The notes beneath the pieces were generated by a model, which did not search any database, was not told the origin of the DNA, and saw nothing but the letters and a program-made list of their open reading frames with translations. A stretch of 64,000 bases of DNA from an uncultured Gemmatimonadales bacterium (GTDB lineage Bacteria > Gemmatimonadota > Gemmatimonadetes > Gemmatimonadales > GWC2-71-9): NCBI GenBank assembly GCA_963740175.1, contig CAVUDL010000006.1:31067-95066 (forward strand). The letters are read 5' to 3'. Positions 57,288 to 60,200 of the stretch are shown here, one piece after another (the first letter of the stretch is position 1; each line of letters starts with the position of its first letter). The translations under genes and the position numbers were made by a program.

Positions 57288-60200
57288 TACGCGCTGCGGC
57301 GCTCGAGCACCGGCTCTCCCTCGATCGAGGCGCTGAGATAGGCAGCCCTGATCGTCGCCACCTGATCCGCCGCGCCTTTGGGTGTGATCTTGCGAAAATG
57401 CGGCAGGAATTCGTCCCAGCGAACCAGGATGTTGCGGGCCCTGGCGCTGACGGTGTTCTCCTCGTGCTCGCGCACCAGCTTCTTCAACAGCTCCGCGTCC
57501 TCATCATCCGGGCCGGTCAGCTCCACCATGTCGTGGTTCACGCGATTGGCGAACGTCCCGGCCTCGTCCATGACGTACGCAACGCCGTTCGACATGCCGG
57601 CGGCAAAGTTACGGCCGGCTCGGCCCAGCACCACCACAATGCCACCGGTCATGTACTCGCAGCAGTGGTTGCCCGCGCCTTCGACGACTGCGACCGCGCC
57701 GGAGTTCCGCACCGCGAAACGATCCCCGGCCTGACCGGCGGCGAAAAGCTTCCCGGCGGTGGCCCCGTAGAGCGAGGTGTTGCCGATGATCAGGTGCTGG
57801 TGCGACAGGTCGGCGTAGCTTGCTTTCCTGAACGGCCGGATGGTGATCTCCCCTCCGCTCAGCCCTTTGGCGACGTAGTCGTTCGCCTCGCCCTCGAGCT
57901 CCAGGTGCACCCCACGGCAGAGGAACGCGCCAAAGCTCTGGCCCGCGGTGCCGCTGAAGCGGAGACGGACCGACCCATGGGGGAGGCCCGCATCGCCATG
58001 GCGCTCGGCGATGGCCCCCGCTACCCGGGCCCCCACCGCCAAATGATGGTTACTGATCTGGTAGTTGCCGGAGAACGGGAGACTGCAATCGAGGTACGGC
58101 TCCAGCTCACCCAGGATCTCGTTATCGAGCGACACCAAACCCGGCCGATCGTTCCGGTCGACAGTTCTCCGTAGCTCTTGCTGCCCCGCTGCCCCCTCGC
58201 TTGTTGGCTCGGGGCAGGCTCCGCTGCCCCCCTGAGTTTCCGCCTCGCTGCCCCGCTGCCCGCCCAGTAGCAGCGACAAATCGAGCATCTGCGCCCGCGG
58301 CACGTCCGGTCGCTCGGTGCGCACCAGCAGATCGTTGCGGCCGATGATCTCGTCCAGCGACCGCGCGCCCAGGCGGGACAGAATGTCGCGCACCTCCTCG
58401 GCGATGAGGGTGAAGTAGGCGATCACCTGCTCCGGCGTACCTCGGAACTTTGCCCGCAGATCCTCGCGCTGAGTGGCGATGCCGGTGGGACAGGTGTTGA
58501 TGTGGCACTGTCGAGCCATGGCGCATCCCAGGGCGACCAGTGGCGCGGTGCCGAACCCGTAGCTCTCGGCGCCGAGCAATGCCGCGATTACCACATCGCG
58601 CCCGGTCTTGAACCCACCGTCGGTGCGCACCTCGATGCGATGGCGCAGCCCGTTACGCACCAGCGTGGCCTGCGCCTCGGCCAGTCCGAGTTCCCAGGGC
58701 GAGCCGGCGTGTTTGATGGATGAGAGCGGCGACGCCCCAGTACCACCGTTGTGACCCGCGATCAGCACGTAGTCCGCGTAGGCCTTGGCCACGCCGGCCG
58801 CGATGGTGCCCACACCGGTCTCCGACACCAGCTTCACGCCGATCCGGGCCCGTGGATTGACGGTCTTGAGATCGTGGATCAGCTGGGCCAGGTCCTCGAT
58901 CGAGTAGATGTCATGGTGCGGCGGCGGCGATATGAGCTGGATGCCTGGGACCGCGTGCCGAAGCCTCGCTATCAGGTCGGTCACCTTGTGCGCCGGGAGC
59001 TGGCCACCTTCACCGGGCTTGGCTCCCTGCACGATCTTGATCTCCAGCTCTTCGGCTCGAGTCAGATACTCGGTGGTGACGCCGAACCGCGCGGAGGCGA
59101 CCTGCTTGATCCGGTTGTCGGCCCGGTCGCCGTTGCCGAAGCCATGATAATTGGCCGGGTCCTCCCCGCCTTCTCCGGAGTTAGAGCGGGCGCCCATGCG
59201 GTTCATCGCGATCGAGAGCGTCGCGTGGGCCTCGGGTGAGAGCGCCCCCAGCGACATGGCAGATGAGACGAAGCGGCGGCGGATCTCCTCCACCGGCTCG
59301 ACCTGGTCCAGCGATATCGTGTCGCCATCGCGAAAGCCGAGCAGATCCCGCGGCCCGGCCGGACGACGGGCGGCATTCTTGGTGAGGAAGGATTCGTATG
59401 CTCCCTCCGTCCTCTCCGTCCTCTCCGTCCTCTCCGCCCTCTCCGTCCTCTTCACCCGTCCTCCCCCCACCGCGCTCTGCAGCGCCACCACGATCCCGGG
59501 CGCCCACCCATGGTCCTCACCGTCTTTCCGAAAGCGCACCCGGCCGTGGTCCGGCAGGGAGGAAGCTTCTTGCCTGCCGTACGCCGGTGCATGCCGCGCC
59601 AGCACGTCCTCGGCGATTTCCTCGAAGCCGATGCCGCCGATGGGCGAAGCGGTCCCCGCGAAGCATGAGGCGATGACTTCATTGCCCAGACCCAGCGCCT
59701 CGAAGATCTGGGCACCGCAGTAGGAGGAAAGTGTGGAGATCCCCATCTTCGACAGGATCTTGAGCAATCCGTTCTCTGCAGCGCTCCGGTAGCTGAGCCG
59801 CGCACCGGCGGGATCCAGACACTCTTCTACCCCCTTCTGCCCCGCTGCCCCGCGGCCCCGCTGACCTTCCCCGCTGAAGACCCCGTCAATGCTCTCCAAG
59901 GCCAGCCACGGATGCACCGCCTCCGCGCCGTAGCCGATGAGGGTAGCGTAGTGATGGATGTCGAAGGCATCGCCCGCCTCCGCGACCAAGCCCACCCTGG
60001 CCCGCAGGCCCGTCTGGACCAGGTGCTGCCGAACTGCGCCGATGGCCAGGAGCATGGGGAGAGGCGCCCTCCGTTCACTGGCGGCGCGATCGCTGATGAT
60101 GAGGATATGGGCCCCCCGCCGTGCGGCCCGCTCGGCCGAACGCCGCAGAGCGGTGAGGGCTGATTTGAGGCCGGCGGTCCCCTTCGAGGGATTCCAGAGT

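Follow-up and report, generated by a model that had tools for sequence, protein, structure and literature searches.

The large subunit of glutamate synthase (GltB, or GltS alpha) of a soil Gemmatimonadales genome is encoded by one open reading frame in the analysed stretch of 64 kb, which is called the window in the following. Translation probably starts at Met25 (about 62011), and an identical database protein (P0001, 100% identity), which is annotated from this methionine with 1574 aa, forms a singleton cluster, the nearest relative being ~87% identical. All four Pfam domains are intact, i.e., GATase_2 (residues 62-480, E-value 4e-153), Glu_syn_central (507-799, 1e-98), Glu_synthase (893-1240, 3.8e-140) and GXGXG (1341-1526, 3.7e-74), and comparison to the PDB entries 6s6s, 1ea0 and 1llw gave E=0. 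In the alignment, Cys62 corresponds to Cys1 of the solved structures 1llw and 1ea0, so that the architecture of the large subunit is present as a whole, comprising a class-II amidotransferase with N-terminal Cys, a central, an FMN/Glu_synthase and a GXGXG beta-helix domain. Within this gene, three tracts of short tandem units were found, and related units recur across the window, with GGGGCAGC arrays at 7 sites:

57287-62083, minus strand: gltB, glutamate synthase large subunit, ORF of 1598 aa with a GTG start
59830-59876, minus strand: loop a tract, period-8 units of GGGGCAGC/GGGGCCGC/GGGGAAGC on the sense strand, residues ~737-751
59403-59451, minus strand: loop b tract, 5.2 period-9 units, of GAGAGGACG type when read on the sense strand, residues 878-893
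58177-58263, minus strand: loop c tract, GGGGCAGC units in three sense-strand clusters, residues ~1274-1302
57229-57286, minus strand: array of the 9-mer GGGAAGGAC, beginning directly after the gltB stop codon
53041-53064, minus strand: octamer array in an acyl-CoA dehydrogenase ORF, G-rich on the sense strand
35790-35889, minus strand: intergenic inverted pair of octamer arrays
25279-25443, plus strand: inverted pair of octamer arrays in the N-terminal region of a DUF2339 ORF
36-62, minus strand: (GGGGCAGC)x3, beginning immediately behind the TAA with which an ABC-F (EttA-like) gene ends

The preliminary description had reported three repeat-derived in-frame segments in an intact gltB. Tandem Repeats Finder (TRF) and a repeat search recovered all of them, and the reading frame stays open through tracts a, b and c with the four Pfam domains preserved. 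The proposed sites were likewise correct, with a located inside the central domain, b between Glu_syn_central and Glu_synthase and c between Glu_synthase and GXGXG. The core of tract a (59837-59863) has period 8, 3.4 copies and 89% matches, is followed by an additional GGGGAAGC-type unit at 59866-59876 and yields the peptide GQRGRGAAGQ (residues 740-749). Tract b is formed by CTCCGTCCT in 5.2 copies with 94% matches (59405-59451) and encodes TERAERTERTERTE (residues 879-893). Tract c had been taken for one array in a single orientation, and both parts of this claim had to be corrected: non-repeat sequence divides three short clusters (58177-58196, 58218-58231 and 58242-58263; exact GCTGCCCC units at 58180, 58188, 58223 and 58247), and one unit of the opposite strand (58210-58217, peptide ACPEP) forms short inverted repeats with its neighbours. 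No inverted repeats were found in loops a and b. Overall, the octamer tracts of gltB comprise 2-3.4 units at 89-100% identity.

These tracts exceed chance. Exact octamers occur 5 times within gltB compared to 0.30 in codon shuffles, period-8/9 arrays 4 times compared to 0.89 +/- 1.0, and the longest array of the gene reaches 34 nt, the longest in any codon shuffle 25 nt. In the whole window, 18 copies of GGGGCAGC face 8.06 +/- 2.97 in shuffled sequence, and none of 100 shuffles reached 18.

Comparison with 200 Gemmatimonadales GltB orthologs (120 + 80) and with solved GltS sequences revealed that loops a, b and c all vary in length, so that the term insertion, which had been applied to all three tracts, suits them to different degrees. 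For loop a it does not hold, since its 33 aa correspond to ~30-32 aa in repeat-free orthologs without net gain; the loop is equally long in Synechocystis and spans 18-48 aa across orthologs. For loop b it is half right: 26 aa are found here and 10 aa in sister clades (72-81% identity), while a deeper repeat-free clade (65-68% identity) features 16-30 aa and Synechocystis an estimated ~21 aa, read off the alignment. For loop c the objection of equal length does not apply, as repeat-free orthologs are shorter; the loop aligns to residues ~1183-1205 of Azospirillum 1ea0, and its 39 aa compare to 23-24 aa in sister clades, while deeper clades have 18-20 aa, an excess of ~15 aa over the sister clades and ~22-23 aa over solved structures.

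The repeats themselves follow the phylogeny. In the sub-clade with at least 80% identity to the query, the tracts have period 8 in loops a and c and period 9 in loop b, the latter at the identical site in close relatives, whereas the units differ by species and so do the lengths, with 22-43 aa for loop a, 18-30 aa for b and 21-39 aa for c. In sister clades, no period-8/9 tracts were found in the three loops. Octamer matches in GltB orthologs concentrate at residues 720-760 and 1260-1300, and the orthologous ORFs remain in frame through all three loops. The constant period per site combined with differing units and lengths points to in-place slippage and turnover rather than to the insertion of a discrete element. 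Likewise, the ACPE motif of loop c, which the query GltB has in common with P0044, P0008 and P0010, suggests common ancestry followed by turnover. By arithmetic, slippage of the 9-mer is frame-neutral and that of the 8-mer is not, as had been proposed beforehand. The octamer tracts in gltB orthologs are interrupted and at most 34 nt long compared to up to 100 nt for intergenic arrays, which fits selection against long, frameshift-prone tracts.

That the encoded peptides are themselves selected, e.g., as flexible or charged linkers such as the ER/TE-rich loop b which adjust domain movement or subunit contacts, is very unlikely. They are hydrophilic and of low complexity, resembling the repeat-free versions of the same loops, and loop b keeps its E/R/T/A-rich character in many relatives. 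Nevertheless, no residue conservation was found within loops a, b and c, the lengths of which span a two- to three-fold range; moreover, sister clades function with a loop b of 10 aa, and it is the DNA unit that determines what kind of peptide results. The tolerance of the loops toward indels suggests that all three may be exposed at the protein surface. An AlphaFold2 model of residues 485-1345, calculated from a 35-sequence alignment of homologs with at least 78% identity, reached a mean pLDDT of 44.6 and was unusable.

Beyond gltB, members of the repeat family are found both in and between genes of the window. The GGGAAGGAC array behind gltB contributes its last unit to a hairpin of 11 bp (57229-57259), where it forms the 5' arm (z = -2.8, with 1 of 200 shuffles folding equally well), and arrays of this family also occur 0-7 nt past the gltB stop in L002, L004 and L007. 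In the acyl-CoA dehydrogenase (ACAD), the array encodes GSGAAGQ at residues ~610-617. The inverted pair of the DUF2339 ORF is translated to GGAAGQRGSRTAGQRGERAA in the G-rich and to PPAAPLPRRPAAAPPRRPAA in the C-rich arm; this neighbouring gene of the window looks frameshifted. Regarding the intergenic pair at 35790-35889, a radical-SAM gene ends with its TAA stop next to one G-rich array, and the complementary array (35790-35809) is found upstream of the next gene, 19 nt from its ATG at 35770. Rfam, applied to the complete window with gathering thresholds, gave 0 matches.

To describe the family on a larger scale, metagenome contigs were scanned with a 24-nt probe. As this probe comprises three full units, the sample is biased against shorter arrays. 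At least 120 contigs with three or more perfect GGGGCAGC units were obtained, carrying at least 171 arrays; among the matches listed, 54 of 171 lay near contig ends and 117 were evaluable. A BLAST search of the array contigs against Gemmatimonadales loci, in which 13 of 120 shared any gene, was uninformative for taxonomy. A first classification by ORF overlap counted 17 sense and 23 antisense "intragenic" arrays and was discarded for its leniency, since the repeats contain no stops and ORFs defined from stop to stop extend across them. If an array is instead counted as intragenic only when both of its flanks show coding signal in a single frame, with gene calls from a GC3 heuristic and not from annotation, 114 of the 117 evaluable arrays (at least 97%) among the matches listed are not intragenic.

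The position near contig ends, together with the frequent confusion of assemblies by repeats and the apparent frameshift in DUF2339, could indicate an assembly or sequencing artefact of the metagenome-assembled genome. Since the gltB ORF is intact over 4.8 kb and equivalent tracts occupy the same three loops in more than 12 independent MAGs and JGI/ENA contigs from differing studies, this explanation is extremely improbable.

The arrays outside genes are typically tied to stop codons. Where an unpaired array followed a stop by at most 100 nt, it was G-rich on the sense strand in 40 of 50 cases among the matches listed and C-rich in 10. The 40 G-rich-sense arrays start between -4 and +17 nt from the stop (median -1), whereas nine of the C-rich-sense arrays lie 7-97 nt away and one overlaps the stop. 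In an unselected set, 13 of 25 period-7-9 arrays begin 0-19 nt after a stop codon. The array copy number differs between orthologous gene ends. An origin of the stop from a repeat unit by CAG to TAG mutation would suit some cases, with the junction TAG CGGGGCAGC, but not the commonest junction, TAG GCGGGGCAGC. The G-rich orientation toward the mRNA-sense strand, which had been noticed beforehand for single-orientation copies, thus holds beside stop codons and also in gltB, where arrays of at least two units in orthologs are sense in 14 cases and antisense in none; due to the shared ancestry of the orthologs these are not 14 independent events. As a general intragenic rule it fails, because DUF2339 contains both orientations, and an acetolactate-synthase-like loop and a helicase-like ORF on other contigs feature C-rich-sense tracts.

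Inverted pairs showed a fixed polarity, with the G-rich preceding the C-rich array in 38 of 38 cases among the matches listed and 0 reversed; their spacers of 33-170 nt are unrelated in sequence. This polarity, the occurrence of the octamer at many unrelated loci, the intragenic copies in ACAD, DUF2339 and the acetolactate-synthase-like loops of L040, L067 and L199, as well as the small inverted unit pair within loop c would suit a selfish mobile repeat, of which pre-formed arrays or inverted pairs were transposed or copied and kept in frame where the protein tolerates them. A precedent for such in-frame selfish DNA is given by the Rickettsia palindromic elements (RPEs), palindromes of ~100-150 bp with a conserved encoded peptide (PMC10969869). 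Nevertheless, this reading is unlikely for gltB: the tracts have no defined element length, conserved core or target-site duplication, the spacers of inverted pairs are unconserved, loops a and b are free of inverted repeats, and the loops already exist in repeat-free orthologs, with loop a showing no net gain. Besides, the period that is constant per site across species argues for local descent and not for repeated arrivals, and no transposase or RAYT-like gene linked to the arrays was found in a search that was not systematic. RPEs and intragenic MITEs do resemble the gltB tracts as dispersed repeat DNA which lies in frame in unrelated metabolic genes and encodes fold-compatible peptides. 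Still, the tracts are short tandem arrays in already variable loops with no fixed length, core or palindrome; their lengths and units differ in every ortholog and they add no extra RNA structure, so that they do not represent discrete elements of this type.

Another explanation refers to the nucleic acid itself: coding-strand G-tracts could be kept as RNA G-quadruplex (G4) or R-loop-prone pausing sites at domain boundaries, which would slow the ribosome or the RNA polymerase and thereby aid domain-wise folding of this four-domain enzyme of 1,500 aa or tune its expression. Tract a contains a canonical four-run G-quadruplex motif (59830-59859), one of only 11 in the 64 kb window, and its RNA is predicted to be stabilized to -29.5 kcal/mol with the G4 term compared to -13.4 without; for (GGGGCAGC)4, the predicted values are -26.4 and -6.6 kcal/mol, respectively. 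In addition, loops b and c are situated at Pfam domain boundaries, all arrays of gltB have the G-rich sequence as sense strand, and G4 formation in vitro is known for related repeats, with G4s in ORFs being able to stall ribosomes (PMC4692102). On the other hand, no G4 potential is predicted for tracts b and c, and Watson-Crick structure in all three tracts is no better than in shuffles (z 0.0 to 0.4). Unit type, sequence and length are hypervariable, sister clades have the same enzyme without tracts, and the orientation count is confounded by ancestry. A function of this kind is therefore distinctly unlikely. Similarly doubtful is a broader idea, according to which G-tract arrays, prone to G-quadruplexes or R-loops and located on the sense strand, would act as structured punctuation exactly at translation stops and the gltB copies at or near domain boundaries as co-opted pause sites coordinating translation or transcription with the folding of a very long multidomain enzyme. 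A related possibility is an active process by which arrays would be seeded at stop codons and, more rarely, within loops.

Among known systems, the family corresponds best to the G4-forming simple sequence repeats of 6-9 nt, i.e., GGGAATC in Xanthomonas and GGGGA(C/T)T in Nostoc (Rehm et al., 2015, PLoS One, PMC4692102), the latter overlapping with the cyanobacterial STRR heptamers (PMC4692102). Shared features are tandem arrays of a unit with a G-tract, scattered across the genome, a strong non-coding bias, here in the evaluable arrays listed, G-rich-sense arrays adjoining stop codons and inverted-repeat arrangements. Likewise, copy number and sequence vary between related genomes, and both are unlinked to surface or virulence genes. 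A modal number of four G-tracts may be a further parallel; here, three G-runs were counted in 18 arrays, four in 48, five in 21 and six in 14, as found with the three-unit probe that is biased against shorter arrays. The second preferred site of those repeats, on the antisense strand in the 50 bp that precede an ORF (PMC4692102), has one example in the window (35790-35809), and the G-then-C order of the 38 pairs is consistent with it. Differences concern the unit, which is the 8-mer GGGGCAGC with 9-mer relatives in the phylum Gemmatimonadota, the predicted status of G4 formation, and the coding-strand tracts at three sites of one housekeeping gene which persist across a clade. As coding-strand copies within ORFs are under-represented for the Xanthomonas and Nostoc repeats (PMC4692102), this clade-wide persistence at three sites is not fully explained by neutrality.

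Further comparable cases are loop expansions of low complexity or by tandem repeats in housekeeping proteins, and variable intragenic tandem repeats as reported from tolA of Escherichia coli (PMC3477136) and from Legionella (PMC2639597). They also lie in frame in non-globular segments and vary in copy number among relatives, but they usually have gene-specific units in multiples of three, whereas two of the three gltB tracts use an 8-nt unit common to hundreds of intergenic arrays. A phase-variable contingency locus is not indicated either, with short and interrupted tracts in the middle of a gene for a metabolic enzyme and orthologs that stay in frame; such an on/off switch would call for a long perfect repeat near the promoter or 5' end of a surface or virulence gene and for frameshifted off variants among relatives. 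A literature search on octamer strings, or on Gemmatimonadota with G-quadruplexes, found nothing specific.

In heterocyst-forming cyanobacteria, STRR heptamers reportedly lie inside the RNase P RNA gene (Vioque, 1997, cited in PMC2858038). This would be a similar case of a short intergenic tandem repeat of the lineage residing in an essential gene at a structurally tolerant position, with the difference that an RNA gene is under no reading-frame constraint. Taken together, the gltB case is an unusual placement of an already described class of bacterial repeats and not a new kind of system.

Accordingly, the explanation preferred here, which is considered probable, is that length-tolerant loops and linkers of GltB were colonized by the G-tract repeats of the lineage, which since then evolve in place. 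Loops a, b and c would represent loops or inter-domain linkers that tolerate length changes. In this Gemmatimonadales sub-clade, a and c may have been colonized by 8-mers of GGGGCAGC, GGGGAAGC or GGACAGGC type and b by 9-mers of GAGAGGACG type, the repeat family residing mainly outside genes, typically right after stop codons and with the G-rich strand as mRNA-sense. Replication slippage, unit mutation and small indels would then reshape the tracts, and selection would let through only variants that keep the frame. As the G-rich strand lacks T, a stop codon is never produced. The 8-mers translate to Gly, Ala, Gln, Arg and Ser and the 9-mers to Thr, Glu, Arg and Ala, i.e., hydrophilic and flexible segments acceptable in a surface loop, and the tracts would probably be close to neutral and need not serve the enzyme. 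The net outcome would be a replaced sequence in loop a and moderately longer loops b and c, and not three discrete arrivals.

With these results, the little-studied quadruplex-prone bacterial repeats of 6-9 nt are extended to an 8-mer in soil Gemmatimonadota, with an unusually sharp link to stop codons, as the array starts within a few bases of the stop. The tracts explain hypervariable low-complexity segments and the length scatter (1537-1581 aa) in annotations of Gemmatimonadales GltB; besides, they call for caution, as assemblies break at tracts of this kind, which can also be mistaken for insertions. Moreover, the orthologs provide a natural series of loop variants for gauging the sequence tolerance of GltB linkers. 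Where loops tolerate changes in length, the coding strand of a large housekeeping enzyme can harbour G-tract repeats over long periods.

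Repeat DNA was detected with TRF and a separate repeat search at three places in gltB, the gene for the large subunit of glutamate synthase (GltB):

57287-62083, minus strand: gltB, glutamate synthase large subunit, intact ORF of 1598 aa
59837-59863, in gltB: tract a, period 8, 3.4 copies, with a further GGGGAAGC-type unit located at 59866-59876
59405-59451, in gltB: tract b, period 9, 5.2 copies, 94% identity
58177-58263, in gltB: tract c, GCTGCCCC units grouped into three small clusters

The three tracts of the preliminary description were hereby recovered, with encoded peptides and residue numbers in agreement, except that tract c, listed there as single-orientation, is broken up by non-repeat sequence and includes one unit in opposite orientation (58210-58217, peptide ACPEP). 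The octamer, an 8-nt G-rich unit, occurs 18 times in the window compared to 8.06 +/- 2.97 in shuffles and five times within gltB compared to 0.30 in codon shuffles, while period-8/9 arrays (tandem runs) in gltB number four compared to 0.89 +/- 1.0 in codon shuffles. Thus, the tracts are not due to chance. That they are an artefact is hardly conceivable.

All four Pfam domains were found in this GltB, i.e., GATase_2 (62-480), Glu_syn_central (507-799), Glu_synthase (893-1240), and GXGXG (1341-1526), and the solved enzymes of Azospirillum and Synechocystis align with it over the full length, their catalytic Cys1 corresponding to Cys62. An identical protein in the database, P0001, has Met25 as its annotated start. 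Related gltB loci belong to Gemmatimonadales metagenome-assembled genomes with 65-87% amino-acid identity. The gene downstream of gltB codes for a DeaD-type RNA helicase (55522-57195, minus strand) instead of gltD, and an insertion of about 18 residues following 'ANY' in Synechocystis Fd-GOGAT, which we take to be the ferredoxin loop, is missing from the GltB studied here (residues ~985-1000). Therefore, the label 'glutamate synthase (ferredoxin)' on relatives may be wrong. A conserved palindromic motif, AACTTGCTGnnCnnCAAGCAAG, is located at 55432-55453 (minus strand) and at 47 of 80 gltB loci (e.g., L012 7766, L019 7795), always on the gltB strand and downstream of gltB or deaD. With a small ORF starting M..QR(L/I)EKERERN about 20-60 nt further downstream, it looks like a putative operator ahead of a transcription regulator, possibly of TetR type.

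The protein segments holding the tracts (loops a, b, and c) were compared across 120 aligned database homologs and gltB from 80 genomes, and at all three sites length varies throughout the order. Loop a (residues 734-766) comprises 33 aa within an ortholog range of 18-48 aa, measures about 30-32 aa in orthologs devoid of repeat DNA and equals the Synechocystis loop in length; it has gained no length overall, and what was replaced is the inside of a loop already present. Loop b (872-897) has 26 aa, with 18-30 aa in the sub-clade to which this gltB belongs, 10 aa in sister clades (72-81% identity) and a similarly short segment in Azospirillum, but a deeper clade of 65-68% identity features 16-30 aa without repeats and a VG(S/G)GK start in common. 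Loop c (1271-1309) reaches 39 aa and is among the longest, some database homologs being longer still; sister clades possess 23-24 aa, deeper clades 18-20 aa, and the solved structures about 22-23 aa less. Loop c is thus genuinely extended, by about 15 aa. Measured by equal-length segments in repeat-free orthologs, the earlier proposal of three in-frame insertions thus fails at a, is half lost at b, and stands at c.

Throughout successive species of the sub-clade, period 8 is found at loops a and c and period 9 at loop b, with units (GGGGCAGC, GGGGAAGC, GGGACAGC, GGCGGACG, and others) and lengths varying; sister-clade gltB loops among the 80 genomes showed no period-8/9 pattern of this sort. 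Such a site-specific period with drifting units would be predicted by local descent with slippage and mutation and not by repeated arrival of a discrete element. Palindromic elements of Rickettsia (PMC10969869) are alike in outcome, placing in-frame repeat DNA within metabolic genes, but their hallmarks (discrete, conserved, palindromic) are not shared by the gltB tracts, and a mobile-element origin appears unlikely. The ACPE motif of loop c recurs in the database homologs P0044, P0008, and P0010. Selection at the peptide level is considered very improbable. The longest octamer tract in coding sequence of any ortholog spans 34 nt, whereas intergenic arrays extend up to 100 nt, consistent with selection against frameshift-prone long perfect tracts.

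Outside gltB, an exact search of metagenome contigs for (GGGGCAGC)x3 retrieved at least 120 contigs holding 171 arrays. Among the contigs listed, only three of 117 evaluable arrays were intragenic (coding signal on both flanks in a single frame), two being C-rich-sense and one G-rich-sense. Unpaired arrays lying no more than 100 nt 3' of a stop codon called with confidence comprised 40 G-rich-sense and 10 C-rich-sense cases in these contigs; the former begin between -4 and +17 nt relative to the stop, with a median of -1 (e.g., TAG GCGGGGCAGC), and nine of the latter lie at 7-97 nt, one overlapping the stop. The window offers two examples:

63: end of an ABC-F gene with stop-adjacent array
35888: end of a radical-SAM gene with stop-adjacent array

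In sequence not selected for arrays (window and 80 gltB loci, 262 stops), 13 of 25 period-7-9 arrays begin 0-19 nt after a stop. A GGGAAGGAC array follows the gltB stop by 0-7 nt here and in the related loci L002, L004, and L007, and in the window contributes to a hairpin (z = -2.8). Inverted pairs run G-rich then C-rich in 38 of 38 cases among the contigs listed (reverse order 0), with spacers unrelated to one another; the sub-motif ACCGGTGTGCTG adjoins the C-rich arm in several of these otherwise unrelated spacers (35840-35851; L142, L194, L199). Copy number varies between orthologous gene ends. A hairpin-forming and possibly REP-like motif, GTCATCC(C/T)GAGCGAAGCGA(G/A)GGA(T/G)C, recurs in many array-bearing contigs (e.g., L084, L110, L126, L130, L165), often just 3' of octamer arrays or within inverted-pair spacers, with one copy in the window (52253-52276, minus strand). 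The genome has several period-7-9 families besides the octamer, including an ATTGGCT/AGCCAAT inverted pair (15754-15773 and 15825-15871, beginning 5 nt past the 15748 stop codon) and the 7-nt units CCGCTTA, GGTCTAG, GGTCTAT, and GACTCTC (window sites 3707-3774, 29269-29295, 45237-45335).

The suggested preference for the G-rich version on the sense strand is confirmed at gene 3' ends and in gltB, where orthologs hold 14 sense and no antisense arrays, though these are not 14 independent events, and where octamer matches concentrate at residues 720-760 and 1260-1300. It is no general rule for intragenic copies, since both arms of an inverted pair are translated in a DUF2339 ORF at 25209, and C-rich-strand peptides occur on other contigs, in a loop of acetolactate-synthase type as well as in an ORF resembling a helicase. 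The DUF2339 membrane-protein gene (25209-27143, plus strand), with inverted arrays in its N-terminal linker, is apparently split over three frames (25209-25574, profile positions 1-35; 25576-26766, positions 42-201; coding-like frame from ~26388), reflecting either a pseudogene or assembly indel errors. An acetolactate-synthase-like ORF (...PKDVQNQ...), adjoining gltB in some genomes (L040 304-380, L067 363-392, L199 8797-8873), carries an in-frame inverted octamer pair inside a loop (GRWTAGQGGS...PRYPAAPLE) and is a second biosynthetic enzyme hosting these repeats.

As ordinary RNA, tracts a, b, and c folded no better than shuffles (z 0.0 to 0.4). With quadruplex energies included, a four-layer sense-strand G-quadruplex (G4) is predicted for tract a (-29.5 vs -13.4 kcal/mol). 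The 64 kb window has just 11 canonical G4 motifs, of which tract a supplies one and tracts b and c none. The predicted structure keeps a functional pause site weakly alive, and a nucleic-acid-level function of the tracts is distinctly improbable.

G4-forming repeats of 6-9 nt were described by Rehm et al. for Xanthomonas (GGGAATC) and Nostoc (GGGGA(C/T)T) as dispersed, mostly non-coding, variable between relatives and preferably of four units, with under-represented coding-strand intragenic copies (PMC4692102), and a tree-of-life survey reported the ends of bacterial genes to be enriched in G4s (PMC12581993). G-runs per array have their mode at four in the contigs listed, though these were selected with a three-unit exact probe that disfavours shorter arrays. 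As the octamer agrees with these repeats in being dispersed, mostly non-coding, and variable between relatives, G4 formation being predicted only, it belongs to this class as an added member. The region upstream of gltB (62149-62436) contains small tandem repeats including GGGGACAG x2 (62237-62252), a G-rich antisense tract in agreement with the second preferred position reported for the class. The gltB case departs from the repeats of Rehm et al. in that a single housekeeping gene retains coding-strand copies in three places throughout a clade. Probably, the stop-codon-associated G-tract repeats of this lineage colonize tolerant GltB loops near-neutrally and turn over in place, with the reading frame acting as filter; the loops would be surface-exposed, the changes neutral and slippage the mechanism.
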